Below are positions 3,129-29,653 of a DNA stretch of 32,000 bases, piece by piece; positions within the stretch are counted from its first letter, which is position 1; each line of letters opens with the position of its first letter. The position numbers and the translations under genes were made by a program. The notes beneath the pieces are model-generated. The model saw only the letters and a program-made list of their open reading frames with translations, was not told where the DNA came from and did not search any database. This stretch comes from Candidatus Saccharimonadota bacterium (GTDB lineage: Bacteria; Patescibacteriota; Saccharimonadia; Saccharimonadales; UBA4665): the NCBI GenBank assembly GCA_016699935.1, contig CP064992.1, forward strand, positions 1,080,001 through 1,112,000. Reading direction: 5' to 3'.

Positions 3129-4529
3129 TCACTCAAGTGGTGAACCATTGTCGAGTTGTTTTTCAGGTGTTAGGAAAACCGGACCATCTTCGCCCTGCAG
3201 TGCAAGCAACATTCCCTGGCTGGTCTCACCCATCATTGTTCGTTCCGCCAGATTGACAAGCACCGGAACTTGCTTTCCTACAAAATCCTCTGGTGTATAG
3301 AACTCTTGCATTCCAGTCAATATCTGTCTGCTTTCATTCCCTAAATCAACTTGAAGCTTTATAAGTTTATCGCTTCCTGGCACTTTTTCTGATATCCAAG
3401 AGTTCCTATGAGAGGAACATCCACTTTTGCAAAATGGTCGAAACTGATGACAGATGGTTTAGTACGCGCACCCGCTCTGCTCTCATCTTTTGTTTTTGAG
3501 AACGCAAGCCCAATGCTCTTTGGACACGAGCAAGTGTGGAGTTGGCGATTTCGTTCATCGCGTGTTCGTCGGATTCCAGTTTTTGCTTGAGAGCGGCATC
3601 ATCTACCTGCGCTAGGCGTTCTTGGAAAGCATGCAGGAATTCGGCTACAGCCACTGCTGTATCTATTTTGAGTGGGCCGTATTGTGTTTGGCCGGTGAAG
3701 CGCGCTTTGATTTCATCGTACGGATTACCCGTGGCGAGCGCCAGAATCTGCATGAGGTTGACGATACCTGGCTGGTCTTGGTTATCGACATCAATCTTGC
3801 CGAAGCTATCGGTAGTGGCACTATGAATCTTTTTGGCCGCCGCCTCCGGAGTATCACCCAAGAAGATTATGCCCTTGCCAGATTCGTCACTCTTGCTCAT
3901 CTTTTCGTCGGATCTTGCAGGTCCTTTATGCGGAGTCCTTGTTCTTTCCCAAAAAACTCGTGCTGTTTCGCGACTGGCTCCGGTACCGTAAAGAGTTCTC
4001 GCTCGAACTTGCTATTCATACGTTCCGCAATATCCCGCGCAAACTCGAGGTGCTGGCTCTGATCGTCTCCTACCGGCACATACCGCGCCCCATACAGCAA
4101 AATATCCGCCGCCATCAGAACTGGGTAGTTAAACAACCCCATGCTAATAGTTTCATTACCTAGGCTCGAAGATTTATCTTTAAACTGCGTCATACGTTCC
4201 ATTTGGCCAACACCAGTGAAGCAGTCCAGGATCCAAGTTAGCTCACTATGGGCGGAGATGTAGCTTTGGCGGTAGATGTGAACGCTGGGGTTATCGAGCG
4301 GCAGGCCTGCGGCGACGTACAGACGGAGGTTGTGCATTATTTGGCCCTGTAGCAGGCTGTGATCAATCGGTGTCGTGAAACTATGCAGGTCTGGTACGAA
4401 AAGATTTACTTCGTATTCGTCTGACCGCGTCTTGGCCATATCGACCATAGGTAGCAGCGCCCCAAAGTAGTTGCCGATGTGCAAATCGTTATTGGCCCGT
4501 AGCCCGGTAAGAATGACTGGTTTGTTCAT
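3129..4529 (-). CDS. trpS: Tryptophanyl-tRNA synthetase fused to a C-terminal OB-fold tRNA-binding domain (Trbp111/EMAP/CsaA-like), frame broken about 3 times
   Basis: 3897..4529 carries the HIGH-type motif (LHIGNYFG). 3406..3900 begins inside KMSKS (..DPTKR* then MSKSD); the A-run at 3902-3905 has 4 A where 5 would give KKMSKS. 3129..3383 plus an upstream frame reads ISFDHFAKVD...VPGSDKLIKLQVDLG...SQGMLLA, which is a tRNA-binding domain. Another break sits in the A-run at 3384-3388. Confidence 0.85.
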
Positions 4530-4587
4530 AGTTCTAGTATATCCTATATTAGTACATTTCCCTCTTGGGCTTGTTCAAGCGCGACCA

Positions 4588-5200
4588 TCATTTCCTTAAT
4601 CCGTCCAACCCGTATGGATTTCGCATCAAGGTGTTAATTGTTTCTTGTGTCCAGTTAGATTCTCTATCAACGAGAGCAGCATAATAGCTTTGTGCAGATG
4701 GTGTTAGTATCCGCGGTTCACAATCGCGTAAAAATGGTAAATCTGTTTTGCATAGTAACGCCATCATCATCTGTCAAAGTGCCATATGTAAATCATGTTT
4801 GTCAACACTCATTGCCAGGGGATTGAGACCTATAGCAGATAGATGTCTTCTAACGCGATTGGTGCAATGCCTCTCGCGGTAACTACCGTTTCCTGCCGGT
4901 TCATTAAAGCATGTACAATACTTATGCGAGACCTCGGCTCCATTTGCCTTTTGCTTGTCGGGATAGCCCCATAACGCTTGTTTGGAGTACCACTTCATGA
5001 ACAGCACTAATCCCAATTGCATCAGCTGGAGGCGCACACCAATGAGTAATTTCAGACTGCTCAATAACTTCTTCGGCTGAGACATGAGTATTTATTGCAC
5101 CTCCTGCGATATCGTATGTAGCAACTTTCAAACCTGATTTTTCGATTCTCGTTCTTAGCTGACTCCCAAGGTCACCCTCTGCGCCAATGACACCAATCAC
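4588..5200 (-). CDS. Rossmann-like NAD(P)-binding protein, fragmented over at least 3 frames (prephenate-dehydrogenase-like is only a guess)
   Basis: GTG start at 5200 preceded by AAAAAGGAG. N-terminus VIGVIGAEGDLGSQL looks like a dinucleotide-binding loop. Later pieces are 4774..5085 and 4588..4770. No diagnostic motif was recognised. Confidence 0.3.
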
Positions 5201-5371
5201 TTCTGCGCTCCTTTTTCAGGTATAGTATCTTTTGGTTTACCTTCAAAATCTTCACGAATAACCATTGCTGTCGCAGTGCTTAACACTTCTCGACTCGGTT
5301 TTAGGCCTAGTACAAGGCAATACCGTCTCCTCATCAACACCTGGTGGTCGTAATATTACGTCGACGCTCAT
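5197..5371 (-). CDS. Small hypothetical protein (about 58 aa if one frame shift is bridged)
   Basis: Strong SD (AAAGGAGAG) lies 4 nt before the ATG at 5371. The first frame stops at 5252. A second frame runs to a TGA overlapping the GTG of the next ORF (GTGA at 5197-5200). Confidence 0.3.
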
Positions 5372-5394
5372 ATTTCTCTCCTTTTTCGTATATT

Positions 5395-5417
5395 AAAAAC
5401 CGCCTTTGTGGCGGTTT
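5395..5417 (-). terminator. Intrinsic terminator inside the leader of the 5371 unit (attenuator candidate)
   Basis: Minus strand reads AAACCGCCAC aaa GGCGGTTTTT followed by A/T. Confidence 0.6.
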
Positions 5418-5515
5418 CGTTTTCTGGTTAATTATTTGCTTAACAACGAGAACAGACCGCCACGGAAGTGTCGGTATACCAATATGAGTTGGCCTGTGCT
5501 GTTATCATGACGTGC

Positions 5516-10308: not shown

Positions 10309-11869
10309 TTACGACGAGCTGTAAAGTGTTTTTAAATTATTACTTCTTATTTTGCGAGATTTTAGTAGGTAATCGACGCGGGGTTTTGGCACGTAGCGGA
10401 GCACCTTTGCACCGCCAGTTGTTGCGCTTAAATCATCTCCACCAAGACTGTCGTAGAAGAAGTCATTACGGCTGTATTGGTCATATGTAATCATAAGTGC
10501 CCGAGACTCAACAGCACGAAGGGTTTCCAACGATACGGCCACAAGTATAAGAACACTGGTGCCGCCTAACGCTAACGCAATGTTTTCTGGGACGAACATT
10601 TGTGCCACAATTGGCATGATTGCTAATATCCCCAAACATATTGCACCAAAGAGTGTTATTTTATTGACGGTTTTAGCTAGGTAGCGTTCTGTCTGGGTAC
10701 CGGATCGCACTCCTTCTAAGAATCCGCCCTGCTTCTGAAGGTTCTCGGCAATTTCTTTGCTATTGAACGTAATACTTGTGTAGAAGAAGGTAAACAGAAA
10801 TACCAGCAAGAAGTACGTCAGTGGGTATATATAGGCCTGCCAGCCACCCGCAGCCAAAGTTTGGGCAGTCGGGTTTTGAAACCACGTTACAAGGTTTTGA
10901 CCAAGCTCAGCCCACTTCGGGTTGCTACTAGAAGTCATGAGCTGACCTGCAAGCTTGGAACACTTAAGAATGCGATGGCAAATATAATAGGCACAACACC
11001 CGCTGTGATGAGCTTTACCGGTAGCGTCGTGGTTACTCCACCGTAGGCACGATTTCCCTGAACGCGTTTGGCGTAGTTGATCGTAAGGCGCCTAGCCGCC
11101 TCGTTCAACATGACAACTATCCACGTCACCAATATGACCACTGCCAAGATGGCGAGCGCATACCAGAACGATCGGGCATTAATGGGTAGCTCGCGTCCGA
11201 AAATCTCCCATTATTGGTCTTATCGTATATAGATGATGCCAATTGGCTAATAGTACCCGGCAAGGCGCTCACAATTCCCACTGTGATTAGGAGCGAAATG
11301 CCGTTGCCAACCGATTTCTCGGTGACAAGTTCACCCATCCACATCAGCAGCATAGAGCCGCCGGTAAGTGCAGCGACCATAAGAACCCATTGCCATAAAG
11401 ACGTATTTGCCGTTATATCGCCTATGCCGCCAACTTGCTGCGCATACTGACGAACGAGGTAGATCGATCCGATAGCCTGTATGATTGCCAGGGAAAGGTA
11501 AGCATCCGCGTATACTGGTTGATTCGCTTCTGTCCGGACTCACCATCTTTACGCATTTTTCAAGCTTTGGAAGAGCCTTGGTGAGTAGCTGCATGATAAT
11601 ACTAGCGTTGATGTACGGGCCAAGTCCGGCAATCATGATAGAGAAATTAGCAAGTGCGCCGCCACTCAGTACGTTTATGAAACTCAGTAGCTGCGGTGTA
11701 TCCTGCGATGAAAACAGGTTTGTCAGCACTTGTTTTAGCGTTTCCGGATCGGCCAAAGGCACTGGTATGTGCGCTAGGATACGAAAAATCAGCAATATTG
11801 CGAGTACGCCAAAAATGCGCTTTCGCATATCACGCGTGTAAATGATGCTCCAATAATTTTCCAGTTCAC
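10309..11869 (-). CDS. secY: Preprotein translocase SecY, frame broken at least 4 times; start uncertain
   Basis: Pieces 11331..11828, an unlisted frame at about 11380-11555 (KMRKDGESGQKRINQYTR..), 11126..11380, 10935..11147 and 10309..10938. Breaks lie near 11556 (A-run), 11490 (C-run), 11211 and 10945. A possible GTG start at 11869 follows AAGAGGGG but is out of frame with the ATG at 11828. Confidence 0.88.
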
Positions 11870-15971: not shown

Positions 15972-16374
15972 TACAGTACCTTCGCTTCCTTCTTCGAATC
16001 AGCCTTTTTGGCTGGCGCTTCGATCTTCACTTCTTTGCCGCTCGCCTTATAGATGCGCTTCTTGCTGCCATCTTTGCCAAGCTCATAACCGATACGGGTT
16101 GGTTTCTTGGTTGTCGGGTCTATGACAGCCACTTTACTGACCCAGATTGGCTTGGTGATTTCGAGGATTCCTCCTGTGGGTGAGCCTGGTTCGGCTTCTG
16201 ATGCTTCTTGACTATGTTGATTCCTTCTACCGTGACTTTATTCTCAGTAGCGTGAGTTGTTAGAACCCGGCCTTGCTTGCCCTTGTATTTGCCACTCAGA
16301 ACCTGCACAAGGTCACCTTTCTTTAGTCTAATCTTCACTCTCTTGTCTCTTGTATCTTGGCTTTTGACTCTCAT
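15971..16374 (-). CDS. rplX: 50S ribosomal protein L24, frame broken once
   Basis: [21 protein letters not shown], then after a shift near 16170-16180 [30 protein letters not shown]...KEAKVL*. The stop overlaps the rplE ATG (TAATG). Confidence 0.92.
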
Positions 16375-16743
16375 TTATAGTACCTCCGGAGCTAGGCTAA
16401 TAATCTTGGCGTAGCCCATATCACGCAGTTCTCTTGGTACGGGTCCGAATATACGCGTTCCTTGGGGTTCTTATCGTCACCAATGATGACTGCGGCATTG
16501 TCATCGAATTTGATAGTGCTGCCGTCTTTGCGCTTGATTTCTTTCTTGGTACGAACGACCACGGCGCGAACGACTGACTTTTTCTTGACGTTACCAGTCG
16601 GGCTGGCTTGCTTGACGGTAGCAGTGATGACATCACCAACCTTAGCGTAGCGCTTGCGGGAAGCCACCAAGAACTCGGATGCAGAGGATTTCCTTGGCAC
16701 CGCTGTTGTCGCAGACGACAAGACGGGTTTCTTGCTGAACCAT
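16375..16743 (-). CDS. rplN: 50S ribosomal protein L14, frame broken twice
   Basis: Starts [27 protein letters not shown] at 16743. The middle piece is [18 protein letters not shown]... The tail is [28 protein letters not shown]. Shifts lie near 16661 and 16460. Confidence 0.92.
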
Positions 16744-21548: not shown

Positions 21549-22169
21549 TTATTTGTCCTCCCCGCGGATTATGACAATGCCCTTTCGTGGACCAGGCACA
21601 GCCCCAACAACACCTATGTAACCTTTTTCGACATCAACCAGTGCTACCTTTAGGTTGCGCACGGTGACTTGATCGTGACCAAGGTGTCCGGCCATACGCT
21701 TACCCTTGAGGATATGCTGAGGATACATCGAACCGATTGAGCCTGGGCGACGATAGCTGCGACCACCGTGAGTTTTGCGACCGCGGTGGAAATTGTGACG
21801 GCGAATGGTGCCGGCCCAACCTTTACCCTTGCTGGTACCCGTAACATGGACAGTGTCGCCAACTGAAAAGACCTCGGCGTTGATTTCTGTTCCAACTGCG
21901 AGGTCTTCGGTAATTTCTGGGACGCGGAATTCGCGCATGATACGCACAATTCGCTTGGCACCCTTGAGATGTCCGACTTGCGGTTTTGCTACTTTCTCTT
22001 CGTTGACTTCCTCGCAACCGAGCTGCACAGACGTATAACCGTCAGTGTCATCGGTTTTCACCTGTGTAATCACACAGGGACTAGCGGAAAGCAAGGTTAC
22101 AGCCTGAGTTGTGCCATCTTCTGCGATGGTACTCGTCATGCCAACCTTTCTGGTAATTAGTGCTTTCAT
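21549..22169 (-). CDS. rplC: 50S ribosomal protein L3
   Basis: Intact 206 aa; MKALITRKVGMTS...GKGWAGTIRRHNF. Confidence 0.95.
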   Translation of the reverse strand: MKALITRKVGMTSTIAEDGTTQAVTLLSASPCVITQVKTDDTDGYTSVQLGCEEVNEEKVAKPQVGHLKGAKRIVRIMREFRVPEITEDLAVGTEINAEVFSVGDTVHVTGTSKGKGWAGTIRRHNFHRGRKTHGGRSYRRPGSIGSMYPQHILKGKRMAGHLGHDQVTVRNLKVALVDVEKGYIGVVGAVPGPRKGIVIIRGEDK

Positions 22170-22353
22170 AGTGTTCGCGCGGGTTCATACGAACCCACAC
22201 TCTCCTTTGTTATAAGAGTTATTTGGTATTTATACTCACCCGATCCGTATTAATGCCTTGTACAGTGACATTAAGAAAATGGTGGCCGGGGTTCCCCGCC
22301 TCTGGCGGGGCCTACCTCACATCACCATACGGAAATGTTTGTATGTAAGCATC

Positions 22354-22383
22354 AGATTACCACACAACCCAAACCCCTGTCAA
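22354..22383 (-). promoter_or_regulatory. Candidate strong promoter upstream of rplC
   Basis: Minus strand reads TTGACA (22378-22383), 18 nt, TAATCT (22354-22359), followed by a leader of about 180 nt with GC hairpins. Confidence 0.5.
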
Positions 22384-22422
22384 CCCGTTGCAAATACTAC
22401 ACCACTGGTTAATAGCAGGTGC

Positions 22423-23253
22423 CTATTTGTGCTTCCAGTCCAGTGTTCTATGTATCGTTCGTGAAGCTGAAATTTTCTTCCCAAACTGTTCCGCTCCATT
22501 GGTAGTTTGCTCCGTAAAAACTCTCTTTCCCAGATTGGCTGCCTTGGCTTTAACAGACTGAATCAACGTGGGTCAACCGTATGTTGTAACGGCGCGTTGG
22601 GATCTCTATCCTTTATTCTTTTATCTTCAGAGAAAGCGTTATGATTAGCAAGCCCAACTCTTGCTTCCTGTCGATCTTCTTCGGTTTGAATTGCAAGCTC
22701 AATTGGTATCTCAAGTTTCTTGCCTTCGATTTCTACACACATTATTACTGTTATTTTGCGACATGGAACAATCTATTGTTCGGTTCAAAATTATCCCTTC
22801 ACCGTCTGGTAGCCAGTCTCCAATATTCGGCGGTAACCCTTTTGAAAATTTTGGAAATAGTCAGGTGAGCCCTGCACAATATATGGTGACGTCTTTGATG
22901 GCCCTGGCACAGCATGAATATCACTGCTTTTTGTATTCCTTCAAGTATTTCAGAAAATAGTATGGCAAGATGGCCGACTTCTTTAACGACAAACGTCAAC
23001 CCATATTTATCAGAAATATTGATATCTTCTGCTCGAACATCCTGCCCTTTACTGCGTAATTTTTCTTCAAGCCTTATTCGCTTATCAAATGCACTTGCGT
23101 CAGTTTTCCTCTATACACCACCCTTACGACGTCATTTATAGCGTTGCTATGAACCATCGCAACGCCAAAGACGATATTGTGTGGTGTGTTGCCTTGGATT
23201 GAATGTTCTTGAAGACTATCAATACCGAAAAGTCTATTTAATAAGCCACTCAT
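22423..23253 (-). CDS. Cassette gene B: hypothetical protein (about 275 aa), frame broken at least 4 times
   Basis: The ATG at 23253 overlaps the gene A stop (ATGA). Pieces read MSGLLNRLFGIDSLQEHSIQGNTPHNIVFGVAMVHSN.. / DASAFDKRIRLEEKLRSKGQDVRAEDINISDKYGLTFVVKEVGHLAILFSEILEGIQKAV / ..VEIEGKKLEIPIELAIQTEEDRQEARVGLANHNAF.. / LIQSVKAKAANLGKRVFTEQ..WKHK*. No family was recognised. Confidence 0.45.
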
Positions 23254-24040
23254 ATGGCGAGCTGCTTCATCACGCCCACCAAACTGCTCTGAATATTTTT
23301 TTTTGTCGCTATAAACAAGTCAAGTCGCTCGGGATGTTCAAGTAAGAGCCGCTTTTCATTATTTCGGAGTGCCATCGTAAACGCATCTTTACCAATAAAT
23401 GAAGTTACCTGGGCATAGAATAGGTCACTGAGACGAGCATTGTGGATAATAGATTTTGATGTTTGAGCTTCGGAAACTAGTCCCGTCGCGAGACTACGAG
23501 CAGCCATTATTACCACGGAATCAAGTGTAACCACGTCAAGAATAGCGTCCATCTGCATTGCGTCAATTCGACCAAAACCATGTTCACCCTCTTTCGGAAG
23601 CTTCTTTTTTGTTTTTCGAGATCTTAAACTAGGTTGATCCAATGGAGCTAGAGCTGAAACATGGCTCTCGCCATAGTCACTAACAATCGAGAAATCATGT
23701 AAATACTTCTTAACTTCATCCCAGTGCTCTGGGCTCACATTATTTGAGTATTCTTTTAATAGACCCCTTGCATTTCTACCTAATTGCTCATCTACTGCGT
23801 CAATTCCTAACTTACTTAACAAGGCTGCAGAATAGGCAGCATGAGTCATGGTATCACCGAGAAAATCATACAATACGCGACAAGTAAGCTCAGATTCTTC
23901 TAGGGTACGAGCGTCGTGGCAACGTTGAGCATAATCAGCAACAATGTTTTGTTCTAAACCAAGATCATGCTGCCCAATAGCAAACTCAACCGCCCTACTC
24001 GGCCGCCTTCGTTTGATAACTTTAATTCTTCTCCAGACAT
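23250..24040 (-). CDS. Cassette gene A: hypothetical protein (about 263 aa); N-terminal part weakly MazG/all-alpha NTP-pyrophosphohydrolase-like (tentative)
   Basis: The listed ORF 23250..23873 extends upstream in the same frame (AVEFAIGQHDLGLEQNIVADYAQRCHDARTLEESELTCRVLYDFLGDTM...) to near an ATG at 24040 in another frame (one early shift). The acidic EExE and DxxGD pattern followed by LGID is the only hint of function. Confidence 0.5.
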
Positions 24041-24047
24041 TCTATAT

Positions 24048-24076
24048 ATTCTAGCATATTTGTCATGTTTTGTCTA
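24048..24076 (-). promoter_or_regulatory. Candidate promoter giving a leaderless cassette mRNA
   Basis: Minus strand reads TAGACA (24071-24076), 17 nt, TAGAAT (24048-24053), 7 nt, then the ATG (24040). No SD is present. Confidence 0.4.
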
Positions 24077-24119
24077 TATATGAGGTCTTGCGGTCTTTTT
24101 GATTTGAGCAACTTTGTAA

Positions 24120-24451
24120 CTACATCTTGATTTCGACGTCGCAGCCGGCGGGGAGGGATAGGTTCATCAGGCTGTCGATGGTCTTGGGAGTTGGTTCAAA
24201 TACGTCGATGAGGCGTTTGTGGACGCGCATTTCGAACTGTTCGCGCCCTTTTTGTAGACATGAGGACTTTTCACCACCGTAAAGGTGCTTTTGCGGGTAG
24301 GTAGTGGGATGGGTCCAGCTAGCGTTGCGCCTGTGCGAAGTGCGGTGTCGACTATTTGCTTGGCGGCTTGGTCGATGATTTTGTGGTCGTAAGCCTTTAG
24401 GCGTATACGAATACGCTGTTTGCCTGGTACTGGTTGTTTGGCGTCTGCCAT
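24120..24451 (-). CDS. rpsJ: 30S ribosomal protein S10, frame broken once
   Basis: [57 protein letters not shown], then after a shift near 24246-24249 [41 protein letters not shown] (stop at 24120). Confidence 0.93.
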
Positions 24452-24658: not shown

Positions 24659-25078
24659 CTACGTTTTCTTCCTGTAAAAACGTAGGGCGGAGGCAACTTT
24701 TTTGTGGATGGGTTCTTTGGGTGGCTTAGTCGCATACTCGGCAAAGACACTATTTACAAAGTCATCTATTTCATCATCGGTCATGCCAGTTAGGGAATCC
24801 CCGTTTACGTCGTTAAGGCCAGATTCGCGGTAGGAAACGGTGCTGGTACCGGTGTGGAACTGGTGGAGAAGGTCGTAGGCTTTGCGACTTTGGCTTCCCT
24901 GCAAGGTCGAATAAGCCTCATTAAGTCGTTGCATATCCTCCAGGGTTCCCCCAGCATCGGGATGCTGCTGCTTTGCCAGCCGGACAAAAGCACTACGTAT
25001 GTCTACAGCTAAAGCATCTGGCTGGATACCAAGCAGCTGGTAGTAGTCGACAAATGAGTTGCTAGTTTCGTGTGTCAT
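24659..25078 (-). CDS. Stand-alone J-domain (DnaJ-like) protein
   Basis: Intact 139 aa; DYYQLLGIQPDA..IRSAFVRLAKQQHPDAGG (HPD motif) ..AYSTLQGSQSRKAYD. No Zn-finger or C-terminal DnaJ domains. Confidence 0.8.
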   Translation of the reverse strand: MTHETSNSFVDYYQLLGIQPDALAVDIRSAFVRLAKQQHPDAGGTLEDMQRLNEAYSTLQGSQSRKAYDLLHQFHTGTSTVSYRESGLNDVNGDSLTGMTDDEIDDFVNSVFAEYATKPPKEPIHKKVASALRFYRKKT

Positions 25079-25345: not shown

Positions 25346-26530
25346 TTACTTGGTTATTTTGGTTACCACGCCAGCACCGACGGTGCGGCCGCCTTCGCGG
25401 ATAGCGAAGCGCAGACCCTGCTCCATAGCAATAGGTGCAAGTAGCTTTACCTTAAAGGTGACAGTGTCACCAGGCATAACCATTTCTTTGTCGGCTGGAA
25501 GCTCAACCTCACCAGTCACGTCCGTTGTGCGGAAGTAGAACTGTGGCTTGTAGCCTTTGAAGAATGGCGTATGGCGGCCACCCTCTTCTTTGCTGAGGAT
25601 GTAAACTTCAGCGTCGAACTCGGTGTGAGGTGTGATGGTACCAGGCTTGGCAAGCACCTGACCGCGCTCGATGTCGTCGCGCTCAATACCACGCAGCAGT
25701 ACACCAGCGTTGTCGCCAGCTTGACCTTGGTCGAGGCTCTTTTTGAAAGCTTCGATACCGGTTACAACAGATTTGGCTGTTGGTCGGATACCAACGATCT
25801 CAACTTCTTCGTTGATTTTCACGATACCTTGTTCAATACGACCGGTAGCGACAGTGCCGCGACCCTTGATCGAGAAAACATCTTCGATAGGCATAATGAA
25901 TGGCTTGTCGAGATCACGGACAGGCTCTGGTAGGTAGTCGTCCATAGCTTGGACAAGTTCCATGACGGCGTCTTCGTCGGCAGCAGAACCTTCGAGTGCC
26001 TTGGTAGCAGAACCTTTGATGATTGGGCAGTCACGGTCGAAACCATTCTTTTCCAACAGATCGCGAATTTCTTCTTCGACGAGCTCGACGAGGTCGGCAT
26101 CGGCGAGGTCCATCTTGTTCATAAAGACCAAGATCTTTGGTACACCCACTTGGCGAGCCAAAAGGACGTGCTCGCGTGTTTGTGGCATAGGGCCATCAGC
26201 GGCAGATACGACTAGGATTGCACCGTCGACCTGAGCGGCGCCGGTAATCATGTTTTTGACGTAGTCGGCGTGACCTGGCATGTCGACGTGTGCGTAATGG
26301 CGCTTTTCGCTTTCGTACTCTTGGTGAGAAGTAGCGATGGTTATACCACGTGCTTTTTCCTCGGGAGCGTTATCAATCTGGTCGTAGTCGACCTTTTTGT
26401 TGGTGTCGCTTGGAAGTTTTTTAGCTAGTACGGATGTAATAGCTGCGGTTAGGGTTGTTTTGCCGTGGTCGACGTGGCCCATAGTACCAACGTTGACGTG
26501 AGGCTTAGTTCGGTCAAATACTCCTGCCAT
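25346..26530 (-). CDS. tuf: Elongation factor Tu
   Basis: Intact 394 aa; [22 protein letters not shown]. Confidence 0.98.
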
Positions 26531-26740
26531 AATAGTGCTTCGCTTTGTAATGAGACAAAACCTCGCGGTTTTTTCTCATCGCGCCGGCAAAAAGACGTAA
26601 CTTTTTGTCGGGCTGCTCTTTTTCCTTCGAGCTACTAAAACGAGATCCTTTCTTTGGTTAGGTTAATTGTTAATAGTTGTTCACGCGGTCCATATTACTG
26701 CAACATACTACAGCAACGCCCTCACGCGAGATACACTGTA

Positions 26741-26770
26741 ATTGTACCGTAAACTACGATGTAAAATCAA
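26741..26770 (-). promoter_or_regulatory. Candidate tuf promoter
   Basis: Minus strand reads TTGATT (26765-26770), 18 nt, TACAAT (26741-26746). The leader of about 200 nt ends in a 13-bp hairpin (26540-26570) just before the ATG. Confidence 0.5.
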
Positions 26771-26782
26771 GTAAAACCAATG

Positions 26783-27136
26783 CTATTCGTATTTAAGCTT
26801 TAGATCGAGTTTGTCAGCGATTTGAAAAATCCATTTTTCCATGCGTACTTGTTGGGCGTCGCGAGCCACATTATCTTGTAGGATATCTTCAATGCGTTTC
26901 ATGTGGCCATCCAGTATCTGGAAAATTTTGTTTATTTTTGCATCGATTTCATCAAACCGTTTATCGTGTTCCTCGAGTTTGCTTTCAACGCGGAACAGTC
27001 GAGCATCCATAGCGTCGAACCGTTGATCCATAGCGTCGAACCGTTGATCCATAGCGTCGAACCGCTCGGAAACCATCGTGGTTATATCAGAAATAGCTCC
27101 GATTACATCATCCAGATCGGTTGGCTTCTTGGGCAT
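26783..27136 (-). CDS. Small coiled-coil protein with RFDAMDQ heptad repeats
   Basis: Intact 117 aa; ..SERFDAMDQRFDAMDQRFDAMDARLFRVESKLEEHDKRFDEIDAKI.. Confidence 0.6.
   Translation of the reverse strand: MPKKPTDLDDVIGAISDITTMVSERFDAMDQRFDAMDQRFDAMDARLFRVESKLEEHDKRFDEIDAKINKIFQILDGHMKRIEDILQDNVARDAQQVRMEKWIFQIADKLDLKLKYE
27005..27067. repeat. 3 x 21-bp tandem repeat (ATCCATAGCGTCGAACCGTTG) inside the coiled-coil ORF
   Basis: Two perfect units plus a third that diverges at its end. Confidence 0.9.
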
Positions 27137-27154: not shown

Positions 27155-29243
27155 CTATTTAGAGTTCTTGGCGATGATGGCTTCGGCGACGTTGTTTGGC
27201 ACGTCGGCGTAGTGGTCTAGTTCCATGCTGGAGCTGGCCCGGCCCTGGCTCATTGAGCGCAAGTTCGTCGTGTAACCAAACATCTCTCCAAGTGGAACGA
27301 ACGCTGTTATTTCCTTGATCCCAGACGAAAGATCTTCCATCGATTCAATCCGACCGCGCTTGCTATTTAGGTCACCTATGACGTCACCCATGAAACTTTC
27401 TGGTGTGACAACGACGACTTTCATAACTGGCTCGAGCAGTACTGGACCGGCTTTTTTGAAGCCATCCTGGAAGCCCATAGAACCAGCGATGCTGAAAGCC
27501 ATTTCAGAGGAGTCAACTTCGTGGTAACTACCATCGTACAACTCAACTTTGACGTCGACGACCGGGTAACCAGCTATCACACCATTGCTCATAGCTTCTT
27601 CTATACCCTTGCGGACGGCTGGGATGTATTCACTCGGCACCACACCACCTTTGATAGAGTTGATCCATTCAAAGCCGGCACCCTGTTCGTTGTGGCTGAG
27701 GCAAGAAGCCAGACGTCACCGTACTGACCGCGGCCACCACTCTGGCGGACAAACTTGCCCTGGGCTTCGACAGCATCTTTGCGGATGGTTTCTCGGTAGG
27801 CCACCTGCGGCTGGCCGATGTTTGCTTCAACGCTAAACTCGCGCTTCATGCGGTCAACCAAAATTTCGAGGTGTAGCTCACCCATACCAGATATAATCGT
27901 CTGGCCAGTTTCATCATCTACGCGCACTCGGAACGTTGGGTCTTCTTCGGCTAGGCGCTGGAGGGCTAGACTCATTTTCTCTTGATCGGCTTTGGTCTTT
28001 GGCTCAATCGCAATCGATACTGGTGGATCTGGGAAAGTAATGTTTTCGAGTTTAATCGGGTGAGCTGGGTCACATAGTGTGTTGCCAGTGGTTGTTCCCT
28101 TGAGCCCGACTATAGCGGCGATGTCGCCCGCCACCACTTCGGTGACGTCTTCGCGCTTGTCGGCTTGCATACGAACGATACGTCCGACGCGTTCTCTTTC
28201 ACCAGTGGAACTATTCAGCACATAGGAACCTGCTTGGAGCGTACCGGAGTAGACACGGAAATACGCGAGCTTACCGACAAATGGGTCGGTCGTGATTTTG
28301 AAAGCTAGACCCGAAAGAGGCTCTGTTTCGCTATGTTTGCGCTCAATTTCTTCGCCAGTTTTGGGGTGTACGCCCCAGGTGTTGCTACAGTCACTTGGTG
28401 CTGGCAGGTAGTCATTGACCATGTCGAGCACTTTTTCGACGATGACTCCGCGGCCATCACCACCGGTGACAGCATAGAACTTGCTACTTAAAACAGCACT
28501 ACGGATGGCTTGTTTGATTTCGTCAACTGAGAGACCTTCTTCGCCGACCTCAAAGTACTTTTCCAGAATAGCTTCGTCTTCGGCAACGGCATTTTCGATG
28601 AGTAGACTGCGATACTTTTTGACCTGCTCCATCATATCGGCTGGGATTTCGCCCTCTACAAGTTCGTGGTCGTGAAATTCGGTGTAGGTGTAGGCCTTCA
28701 TAGTGACAAGGTCGACAACGCCATTGATGCTCTGTTCGAAACCAATTGGTAGGTGAACCGGGAAGGCACGTTTGCTCAAGCGGTGGTGAATGCTGTCGAG
28801 GCTCTTGTAGAAATCGCCACCGGTTTGGTTGATTTTGTTGATGAAACAGATGCGTGGTACGCCGTATTTGTCGGCTTGACGCCAAACAGTTTCACTTTGG
28901 CTTTCGACACCCATCTTGCCGTCGAAGACGACACAGGCACCGTCGAGCACGCGGAGACTGCGTTCCACCTCGGCCGTGAAGTCTATATGGCCGGGAGTGT
29001 CGATGATGTTGATCTGGTGACCTTCCAAAAACAGGTCACAGCAGCCGAAACGATGGTGATGCCACGCTCACGTTCTTGCTCCATCCAGTCGGTGGTCGTG
29101 CCTCCTTCGTGAACAGCACCAATTTTGTGCTTTAGACCCGTACGATACAGAATTCCTTCTGTCGTAGTCGTTTTACCCGCATCGATATGGGCAATAATGC
29201 CGATATTGCGGATGTCTTTCATTAGTACTTTCTTGTCTGCCAT
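27155..29243 (-). CDS. fusA: Elongation factor G, frame broken twice
   Basis: 28983..29243 ([14 protein letters not shown]), 27601..29028 ([10 protein letters not shown]...) and 27155..27643 (C-terminal domains). Shifts lie near 29020-29030 and 27700-27715. Confidence 0.96.
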
Positions 29244-29255
29244 TTTGTCTCCTTA

Positions 29256-29287
29256 GAGTTAAGAGTTATGAGATAAGAGATAAGATC
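29256..29287. repeat. Inverted-repeat arm (downstream side) bracketing the four-helix-bundle gene
   Basis: GAGTTAAGAGTTATGAGATAAGAGATAAGA. This is the reverse complement of 29654-29683 at 28 of 30 positions and is built of GAGNTAA heptads. Confidence 0.9.
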
Positions 29288-29653
29288 TTATTTCGTACCA
29301 TTTGTTTTATTGATTAAACCTGTCAGTAGCTTGTGGCATTCTATGCTTGCATCGTCTAGACTTTGGTGTCTATCTTGCAAAATATAACCAACATCTTTTG
29401 CGACTAAGAGTTGCGCTTGTACTTCGTGCAATGACGCTCGTGCCATATCGTAAAAATGTGCTCGATCAGCCATCGTACGTCGACCAAAACCTTCAGCAAT
29501 ATTTGAAACTAATGAGACTGAAGCTCTTCGTATCTGGTTGGTTAGACCAAAGATTTCATCTCGTGGAAACTCTTTTGTAATCCTATAAATGTCTAGAGTC
29601 AGAGCGTGGGATTTCTGCCAAGCTATGAGGTCGCGAAATGTGTGGATACTCAT
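29288..29653 (-). CDS. Four-helix-bundle protein of the '23S rRNA intervening-sequence protein' family (Avd-like fold)
   Basis: Intact 121 aa; FRDLIAWQKSHALTLDIYRITKEFPRDEIFGLTNQIRRASVSLVSNIAEGFGR...FYDMARASLHEVQAQLLVAKDVGYI is the typical family signature. Confidence 0.85.
   Translation of the reverse strand: MSIHTFRDLIAWQKSHALTLDIYRITKEFPRDEIFGLTNQIRRASVSLVSNIAEGFGRRTMADRAHFYDMARASLHEVQAQLLVAKDVGYILQDRHQSLDDASIECHKLLTGLINKTNGTK

Follow-up and report, generated by a model that had tools for sequence, protein, structure and literature searches.

A diverged RelA/SpoT homolog as the probable occupant of an exchange-prone slot between rpsJ and rplC in Saccharimonadales

Results

Gene content of the locus

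We analyzed a 32,000-nucleotide stretch (here, the window) of a Candidatus Saccharimonadota bacterium (assembly GCA_016699935.1; contig CP064992.1, positions 1,080,001 to 1,112,000), a stretch of the str-S10-spc-alpha ribosomal superoperon that is encoded on the minus strand. The gene order is fusA, tuf, a gene for a J-domain protein, rpsJ (ribosomal protein S10), the gene that is the subject of this report, rplC-rplD-rplW-rplB ... secY, and rpoA. The gene in question lies between rpsJ and rplC (ribosomal protein L3), probably encodes a RelA/SpoT homolog (RSH), and is referred to below as the RSH-like gene. The rpsJ stop (24120) and the rplC ATG (22169) are separated by 1951 bp, in agreement with the value of about 1.95 kb given in an earlier reading of this DNA made without database searches (here, the sequence-only reading). 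No transposase or integrase gene was present among the open reading frames (ORFs) of the window, and its direct and inverted repeats were limited to short chance repeats; the same reading had reported neither mobility genes nor obvious flanking repeats, and inspection bore this out. An Rfam scan of the window yielded no family at gathering scores, and no tRNA or tmRNA was found in it.

For comparison, a one-genome-per-species scan with the L3 protein provided 80 loci (prefixed L below; L3 identity, ≤95%), most of which were labelled Candidatus Saccharibacteria or Saccharimonadales. Proteins of the family described here are prefixed P.

A single gene interrupted by frame slips

The interval had been described as two translationally coupled genes (A and B) of which the start and stop codons overlap (ATGA, 23250-23253). 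Comparison with relatives showed that A and B are parts of one ORF, with A corresponding to an HD-fold domain and B to a synthetase domain. Six relatives (L003, L005, L006, L011, L016, and L022) carry a single colinear ORF of 502 to 615 aa in the same place, and the window gene was also colinear with P0002 to P0009. The L003 protein matched the window in one frame at residues 25 to 240, in another at residues 245 to 314, and in a third at residues 380 to 487. In the frame of gene B, the similarity extended upstream of the ATG of B (window, YSEQFGGRDEAARHMSGLLNRLFG; L003, YMKGFGGRDQFSSYVSGILNRMFG; i.e., FGGRDEAARH versus FGGRDQFSSY), and the frame changed at a run of nine adenines that lies just upstream of the ATGA. 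The overlap therefore results from a frame slip, and the coupled gene pair is not supported.

Comparison with the relatives located eight slips in total (one in A, one at the A/B junction, and six in B), all of them -1 slips (i.e., one base is missing from the assembly). Frame breaks had been correctly recognized in both parts, with a different count (one in A and at least four in B). Adding one base at each of the eight sites restored colinearity with the relatives and left zero in-frame nonsense codons. Seven of the slips were at or adjoining short same-base runs; the slip at about 22925-22905 has merely a TT dinucleotide, and the position of the first slip was only bracketed. Correction of the slips near 22797 and 22757 restored the sequence FHVAKIT, which fits the family motif Y/F-x-V-A-K-x-T (Lys and Thr, >90% conserved).

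Essential genes of the window contained slips as well, namely, rpsJ (~24230), rplN (16378-16743), rplX (15974-16374), rpsQ (~16900), secY (10309-11828), fusA (27155-29207), and rpoA (~7501). The slips in rpsJ, rplX, and rpsQ were also -1, and rplN had one of each direction; overall, the rate in the neighbors was about 1 per kb, and nearly all slips were -1 where the direction was checked. Given that essential genes are split in this manner, the sequence carries indel errors typical of long-read assemblies. Judging from the sequence context, the pattern is one of systematic undercalling of same-base runs, and many genes of this genome will be broken up in ORF-based annotation. The eight breaks in the RSH-like gene most likely have the same origin as those in its essential neighbors, namely, errors of sequencing or assembly; the uniform direction and context of the slips and the lack of nonsense codons after correction make an artifact likelier than decay.

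Relationship to RelA/SpoT enzymes

The joined window protein aligned over its full length with 12 relatives. The alignment contained, in order, the motifs HPxR...LLHD, a KAAExLDxL helix, and (D/E)AESFYAPLCE, followed by WRxKSxGSLAxK, PxDxxGxTxhh, YxVAKxT, and ExQFxTxxxR...RxGxAAHxxYK. A profile built from 13 sequences matched nine Rel/RelA entries among the PDB sequences (E, 2e-4 to 4.5e-3); all other matches were noise with E values of 1 or more. With a 112-sequence profile, the PDB matches were Staphylococcus aureus Rel (3.6e-6), RelSeq (1.1e-5), Escherichia coli RelA (2.3e-5), FaRel2 (3e-5), and YwaC (0.025); the alignment with S. aureus Rel, the one inspected, consisted of three colinear segments over the HD and synthetase domains. 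Individual family members also exceeded Pfam thresholds, i.e., two for RelA_SpoT (PF04607; gathering score, 27; P0060, 33.9 bits; P0100, 27.9 bits) and three that were at or above the cut-off for HD (L005, L011, and P0060). The window copy was tied to the family by an E value of 5.8e-56 (P0001) and by the full-length alignment.

Structure prediction followed by a Foldseek search, a check that the sequence-only reading had proposed, was run on the joined protein and returned the catalytic fold of Rel/RelA/SpoT. The AlphaFold2 model of the corrected window protein (predicted local distance difference test [pLDDT], 69.9; predicted TM-score [pTM], 0.73) had 19 top PDB matches that were all catalytic regions of Rel, RelA, or SpoT, followed by noise. 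For P0002, modeled with the 112-sequence alignment (pLDDT, 94.1; pTM, 0.94), the top 22 matches were all SpoT, Rel, or RelA, followed by CapRel. The Foldseek probability was 1.00 for the Rel/RelA/SpoT matches. In the sequence-only reading, gene A was thought to be weakly MazG-like and gene B to belong to no recognizable family. No MazG signal was found, A being the HD-fold domain of the homolog, and profiles, motifs, and models assign B to the synthetase domain.

Coordinates of the domains, slips, and neighboring features are presented in Table 1. No Pfam match to a TGS or ACT domain was obtained for proteins of 500 to 615 aa; the C-terminal regulatory region of long RSHs was thus not encountered. 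In its place there is a helical tail, which had no detectable relative. The mean pairwise identity of the tail within the family was 19%, and the N terminus and the tail were the most variable parts, while divergence was spread evenly across both catalytic domains.

Table 1 Features of the rpsJ-rplC interval and its edges, in window positions
Feature	Position	Strand	Remarks
rpsJ (ribosomal protein S10)	24120..24451	-	Contains one -1 slip (near 24230-24245); identity to the L003 protein, 99% across two frames
Promoter-like site TAGACA-17-TAGAAT, with TG before the second hexamer	24048..24076	-	10/12 consensus positions; ends 7 nt before ATG 24040
RSH-like gene, ~542 codons with the eight -1 slips corrected by one base each	22423..24040	-	Colinear with single ORFs in relatives
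N-terminal all-helical HD-fold (hydrolase-like) domain, ~residues 25-275	23230..23970	-	Model; colinear with the Rel ...KLADRLHNMR...EIYAPLAHHLG helix
Pyrophosphokinase (SYNTH, RelA_SpoT) domain, ~residues 289-484	22598..23178	-	Motifs YRGK(T), D-K-Y-G-L-T-F-V-V, FHVAKIT, IELAIQTEEDRQEARVGLANH
C-terminal helical tail, ~60-90 aa	22426..22597	-	Two to three helices in models
-1 slip	~24030-23990	-	Bracketed only; comparison with relatives
A9 run, frame change between "gene A" and "gene B"	23296..23304	-	ATGA (23250-23253) just downstream
-1 slip, A4	23107-23104	-	Comparison with relatives
-1 slip	~22925-22905	-	Comparison with relatives
-1 slip, A4G3	22843-22837	-	Comparison with relatives
-1 slip, G3	22797-22795	-	Comparison with relatives
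-1 slip, A4	22757-22754	-	Comparison with relatives
-1 slip, C3	22572-22570	-	Comparison with relatives
rplC promoter block TTGCAAC-N3-TTGACAGGGGT...TGnTAATCT	22354..22393	-	Conserved across the order; downstream slot edge
Leader hairpin, P1 ATGGTG/CACCAT around a GC-rich apical stem, then UUUUC	22275..22328	-	Local variant of the leader shared by the order; dG, -25.4; z, -1.9
rplC (ribosomal protein L3)	21549..22169	-	Intact

Conservation of active-site residues was assessed in 112 family members (P0002 numbering). On the synthetase side, R345, K347, D384, and H509 were each present in 112/112 members and E490 in 111/112, and the window copy keeps all of these residues after frame correction (i.e., the Arg-x-Lys loop, the Mg-binding Asp, Glu-x-Gln, and the His). 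The HD ligands were retained much less often (H50, 61/112; H77, 56/112; D78, 66/112). Since the synthetase residues are invariant and about half of the members have lost the HD ligands, the constraint lies on the pyrophosphokinase site. The window copy has ESELTCRV and LLSK in place of the HPxR and LLHD of other members, and L003 has likewise lost the ligands in an intact ORF (HAELTCRI and LHRL). From these substitutions, the HD domain of the window copy is probably a noncatalytic, possibly regulatory pseudohydrolase.

Size and annotation of the family

An exhaustive HMMER search of 1.84 billion representatives detected at least 322 clusters (50% identity) at E ≤ 1e-3, of which 277 were at ≤ 1e-10. 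Nearly all of the 150 matches listed were 480 to 620 aa long, and a few shorter ones were apparently partial. Every name on record was "hypothetical protein," and the records were from Candidatus Saccharibacteria. Of three word-indexed protein searches, one returned only the ORF of the window itself, and the others returned 8 and 7 relatives. PADLOC had no match for the window copy or for six intact homologs, PHROGs had none for the window copy, and a search of viral contigs with a nine-sequence alignment found no relatives. A study of soil Saccharibacteria states that a gene for (p)ppGpp synthesis is annotated in most Saccharibacteria and is missing from one soil lineage (PMC6031116), and Saccharibacteria and TM7 both go unmentioned in the main text of the RSH classification published by Jimmy et al. 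in 2020 (PMC7229694). The family described here is an unannotated, structurally distinct branch of the well-known RSH enzyme superfamily.

The slot between rpsJ and rplC

The sequence-only reading took adjacency of rpsJ and rplC as the rule and their separation here as a unique insertion. Neither view holds in Saccharimonadales. In all 68 loci with both genes, rpsJ and rplC were separated by 326 to 5761 bp, and adjacency was never seen; the split is universal in the sampled order, and the slot can be empty (L040, 326 bp) or can hold other genes. Its occupants included a predicted membrane protein of ~95 aa, an Idi-like protein, GNAT acetyltransferases, and other genes. The membrane protein was the commonest (60/80 loci) and was often encoded just after the RSH-like gene; its consensus (...DGVFLLKLVLYVILGSLWLK...HEHFRIDRKIEYAVL...GLYISL) corresponds to no Pfam family. 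Examples are found at L006:5427-5747, L008:2810-3097, L055:4876-5154, L086:6580-6876, and L087:6496-6774, with ~55 more loci, and the window and its closest relatives lack it.

The RSH-like gene was present in 6 of the 80 genome loci and was in the slot every time. Among nine further metagenome proteins, six (seven contigs) were encoded between S10 and L3; here and in the six genome loci, the gene was always co-oriented with the ribosomal genes. The contexts of the other three were the rplJ-rplL/rplA junction, a nonribosomal setting, and a short contig with unannotated neighbors. In total, the gene lay between rpsJ and rplC in 13 of the 16 contexts examined. A family member above the Pfam RelA_SpoT threshold (L090:1715-3331) lies between rplJ-rplL and rplA, i.e., not in the same ribosomal protein operon as the gene of the window, and is followed by a 102-aa ORF.

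The edges of the slot were sharp. The flanks of the window were ~76 to 85% identical in nucleotide sequence to those of its closest relatives; the similarity ended at 24117-24121 and resumed at ~22400-22405. The rpsJ stop codon and the conserved promoter/leader of rplC are the exact limits of the slot. The RSH-like gene is missing from the closest relatives (L001, L002, and L004). L003 carries one with only ~35% protein identity to that of the window, compared with 90% for L3, 99% for S10, and 88% (nucleotide) for the rplC leader. Similarly, L003 and L005 are 95% identical in L3 and 26% identical in the RSH-like protein. Over 12 loci, RSH-like identity was unrelated to L3 identity (Spearman, -0.09), which indicates that one deeply diverged allele has taken the place of another, presumably by recombination in the slot, and that divergence has not been clock-like. 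In L002, a 53-nt direct repeat (237-289 and 813-865; 94% identical) of the rpsJ 3' end brackets a 576-bp segment with a GNAT acetyltransferase; from its sequence, it looks like an att-type footprint of an insertion at the rpsJ stop. No other duplication of the rpsJ 3' end was found in a scan of loci with at least 70 nt of rpsJ.

The percent G+C of the window was lower in the slot (0.41 to 0.42 over 22501-24000 versus ~0.49 for the whole window, as fractions), so the description of the interval as AT-rich was accurate; the suggestion of a foreign composition was not. Comparable dips were found elsewhere in the window (0.41 at 26501-27000; 0.43 to 0.44 at 4501-5500 and 29001-29500), and the slot was 1 to 10 points below its locus in 62/68 relatives regardless of the occupant. 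Because low G+C is general to the slot across relatives, it is no evidence of foreign origin.

Elsewhere at the locus, a 139-aa J-domain (DnaJ) protein is encoded between tuf and rpsJ (24659-25078, minus strand). It was found in only ~20 relatives (37 to 76% identity), so the tuf-rpsJ junction is a second variable slot.

Transcription signals and the rplC leader

Upstream of the RSH-like gene, the sequence-only reading had recognized a promoter-like sequence of its own (TAGACA-17-TAGAAT) that would produce a leaderless mRNA. The hexamers are present and could yield such a transcript, judging from their position; the site is recognizable only by its match to the consensus, its nucleotide sequence is not shared by relatives, and it is one of seven promoter-like sites in the region, a number that is not clearly above that in shuffled sequences (4.5 ± 2.1). 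The 79-nt gap between rpsJ and the RSH-like gene contained no terminator, and from this arrangement, read-through from tuf-rpsJ is an equally possible source of expression.

A promoter from which transcription restarts into rplC had also been proposed, and this site (TTGACA...TAATCT, 22383-22354) is strongly supported by its conservation in relatives: the 30-mer was matched with no more than 8 mismatches in 39/79 loci. Downstream of it, the order shares a terminator-like leader, in which a long hairpin is followed by a U-tract. Within the hairpin, the AGGUC and GAAACC strands are conserved, the apical stem is variable, and P2 is the inner stem. The P1 stem exists in compensatory variants (ATGGTG/CACCAT, CTTGGTT/AACCAAG, and CTTGGAT/ATCCAAG). 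We built a covariance model of the leader (R1) from 17 sequences, with the structure of the seed alignment annotated by hand; when the leaders were simply aligned with MAFFT, RNAalifold recovered only the base of P1. R1 matched 74 of the 89 loci searched, exactly once each and upstream of rplC (e.g., L050:1670-1736 and L067:5853-5919). In the R1 alignment, 85.6% of cells were paired (25 to 55% in slid controls), a value that leans toward structure since the alignment was fitted to the model. Nine pairs showed compensatory double changes and 0/500 shuffles reached the score, counts that lean the same way. R1 did not detect the leader copies of the window, L003, and L004; the homology of the undetected copies is based on their nucleotide identity to L001 to L004 (83 to 88%) and their fold. 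Searched against Rfam 15, the leader had no match, with chance-level scores only. On sequence and predicted fold, we regard it as a candidate new attenuator of a ribosomal protein operon.

In the clade of the window (L001 to L004, L013, L033, L016, and L006), a Shine-Dalgarno (SD)-like AAAGGAG lies ~31 nt upstream of the rplC AUG, and a hairpin with differing stems (GGGTTC.../...GAACCC, GTGAGTT.../...CTCAC, and CACGTCAT.../...ATGACGTG) separates the two (window, 22181-22208, minus strand). Folding of the hairpin may place the SD close to the AUG. In more distant relatives, the spacing of the rplC SD is normal.

Discussion

We consider it likely that the window carries one gene for a very diverged, Saccharibacteria-specific RSH that is reduced to the catalytic core and resides in an exchange-prone slot between rpsJ and rplC. 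Several observations weigh against this interpretation. The window copy alone had no match in single-sequence scans of Pfam, NCBIfam, PHROGs, and PADLOC, whether as A, as B, or joined; because single-sequence searches miss it, its identity as an RSH rests on profiles, motifs, and predicted structure. The TM-scores of the Foldseek matches were low (0.26 to 0.39 query normalized; 0.25 to 0.58 target normalized). The window copy and L003 lack the Lys after AAH-x-x-Y, which is otherwise >90% conserved, and have an atypical G-loop. Finally, the slip density is ~4 per kb in the RSH-like gene versus ~1 per kb in its neighbors, at a similar density of same-base runs. A stop-free path obtained by dynamic programming needs at least 6 frame changes in the 1.6 kb of the gene, compared with 2 in 2.05 kb for fusA, 3 in 1.5 kb for secY, 1 in 0.94 kb for rpoA, and 0 in 1.2 kb for tuf. 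The Poisson probability of the excess is 3e-5 with the first estimate for the neighbors (5 slips in ~9.4 kb) and, as an uncomputed estimate, ~0.001 to 0.006 with the broader rate of ~1 per kb. Thus, the window copy could be decaying.

A decaying pseudogene, i.e., a dispensable gene inactivated by real frameshifts on its way to an empty slot, is the first alternative, and we consider it unlikely. It would account for the 6 (minimum) to 8 (by homology) slips at about four times the local background with no richer supply of same-base runs, for the absence of the gene from the closest relatives (L001, L002, and L004), and for the lost HD motif and the differing synthetase-side residues. Decay sits poorly with eight single-base deletions of which seven are at or adjoin same-base runs, the same type and direction as in most slips of essential genes (rpsJ, rplX, and rpsQ), and with a corrected reading frame that is free of nonsense codons and has intact core motifs (including FHVAKIT and IELAIQTEEDR...H). 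Moreover, the intact ORF of L003 has the same degenerate HD residues, which makes these a feature of the lineage. The evidence is divided in another way for a conflict or defense enzyme, in which the synthetase domain of a fused toxin-sensor RSH (as in CapRel or the toxic small alarmone synthetases [toxSAS]) would arrest growth as a toxin, by forming (pp)pApp or ppGpp or by pyrophosphorylating tRNA, and would be checked by the pseudo-HD domain, the tail, or both until a phage or host trigger. The hyperdivergent alleles (L003 and L005), the lack of correlation between allele identity and flank identity, presence/absence polymorphism among close relatives, the variable N terminus and tail, the absence of the ribosome-sensing C-terminal region, and FaRel2 and CapRel among the sequence and fold matches all point in this direction. 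We nevertheless find such an enzyme doubtful, since PADLOC was blank for six intact homologs and the window copy, viral contigs had no relatives, the gene is inside housekeeping operons, co-oriented and with no partner gene, long RSHs were matched more strongly than toxSAS enzymes, and divergence was even over both catalytic domains.

The guess of a toxin-antitoxin, defense, or ribosome-associated module in the sequence-only reading was right in that a nonribosomal, fast-evolving gene lies in the S10 operon; as a two-gene toxin-antitoxin or defense module, it gained no support. A looser version, a ribosome-associated or conflict module, is conceivable given alleles that are hyperdivergent, polymorphic in presence/absence, and decoupled from the phylogeny of the flanks. 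A toxin-antitoxin pair in which a small alarmone hydrolase (A) is coupled to a small alarmone synthetase (B), as in FaRel-ATfaRel, would explain the ATGA overlap of the assembly as given, and pairs of this type are known (PMC7229694). Nonetheless, the two domains are fused in one protein of ~500 to 600 aa in each of the 12 relatives examined and in ~300 family clusters, and B-frame homology upstream of the ATG of B and the frame change at the A9 run contradict a separate gene B. A also lacks the HD catalytic residues and so could not hydrolyze an alarmone. We regard the pair as highly improbable, and the same applies to a foreign AT-rich island or a misassembly. The latter two would fit the low G+C and the sharp homology breakpoints; they are contradicted by the recurrent occupancy of the slot (the same family in the same place in 13 independent contigs) and by a low G+C that recurs across the slots of relatives and is equaled elsewhere in the window. 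In addition, the family was found only in Saccharibacteria-labelled records or equivalent contexts, and mobility genes and repeats are lacking.

Returning to a diverged RSH in an exchange-prone slot, we propose that the enzyme would use ATP as the donor of a beta,gamma-pyrophosphate, with the 3'-OH of a purine nucleotide as the acceptor. It would thereby make (p)ppGpp or (pp)pApp or, with lower likelihood, modify the 3' end of a tRNA, and translation and growth would be slowed. The gene is probably transcribed as the last of the tuf-rpsJ unit or, alternatively, from a leaderless promoter of its own. Its dose would then follow how strongly translation genes are expressed and would not respond to uncharged tRNA on ribosomes, and control would be exerted through this dose or through the pseudo-HD domain and the tail, not by stalled ribosomes. 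The slot content appears to be exchanged, lost, and replaced, with the flanking homology as a plausible route. A more speculative extension, to which we give little credence, is that the slot is an exchangeable cassette site and that its RSH-like occupants are hyperdiverse, growth-arresting nucleotide or tRNA pyrophosphokinases for phage defense (of the CapRel type) or for control between epibiont and host, with the pseudo-HD domain and tail as the sensor of the trigger. A place beside rpsJ would ensure expression and would permit allele swaps via the ultraconserved flanks.

Saccharibacteria are ultrasmall epibionts with minimal genomes, and to our knowledge, the regulation of their growth is poorly understood. 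A family recorded as hypothetical proteins has the makeup of a two-domain RelA/SpoT-type enzyme without ribosome-sensing domains and is encoded mostly inside the ribosomal superoperon. It is a testable candidate for alarmone signaling, or a toxic variant of it, in Saccharibacteria; a role in conflict or defense, if true, would raise its interest considerably. An operon that had been taken as the most conserved of the genome is interrupted throughout the sampled Saccharimonadales, at a recombination-prone slot beside a conserved promoter and an attenuator-like leader. The locus also provides a warning for annotation, i.e., frame slips of long-read assemblies can mimic convincing translationally coupled gene pairs.

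Among known systems, the catalytic regions of Rel, SpoT, and RelA (RelSeq, 1VJ7; Thermus thermophilus Rel, 6S2T-V; S. aureus Rel, 7OIW; SpoT, 7QPR) have the same order of an HD-fold domain followed by a RelA_SpoT domain, and long RSHs were the top and essentially sole profile and fold matches of the family. The shared motifs are colinear, i.e., a KxAxxLxN helix, (E/D)xFYAPL, RxK(S/T)xxSxxxK, Dx(G/A)xT/R-hhh, Y-x-x-x-(H/K), and E-x-Q-x-x-T...G-x-A-A-H-x-x-Y-K, and the degenerate HD domain of about half of the family parallels the pseudohydrolase domain of RelA. Unlike long RSHs, the family has no TGS, helical, ZFD/CC, or ACT/RRM domain and ends in a helical tail of 60 to 90 aa. Identity to long RSHs is ~10 to 15%, most members are below the Pfam and NCBIfam cut-offs, and the HD domain has large insertions. 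The predominant location between rpsJ and rplC (13/16 contexts) and the exchange of extremely divergent alleles between close genomes also set the family apart.

Small alarmone synthetases (SAS; RelQ, RelP, and YwaC) and toxSAS enzymes (FaRel2 and CapRel) match the family in the synthetase fold and the G-loop region (FaRel2, E = 3e-5; YwaC, 0.025; CapRel, by fold). They likewise lack ribosome-sensing domains, and the fast evolution and patchy distribution of the family resemble those of toxSAS and defense variants. In contrast to the family, they consist of a single catalytic domain (~200 to 370 aa) that is not preceded by an HD domain. The antitoxin of a toxSAS enzyme is either the product of a partner gene or a C-terminal pseudo-ZFD domain, whereas the RSH-like gene has no conserved partner gene, no similarity to any other protein was detected for its tail, and PADLOC was blank.

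The leader of the E. coli S10 operon mediates transcription attenuation and translational control by L4. The rplC leader differs from it in being upstream of rplC rather than rpsJ, with no sequence or Rfam match. It resembles the E. coli leader in that a structured 5' leader precedes the genes for L3-L4-L23-L2... and in that the main hairpin is directly followed by a U-tract.

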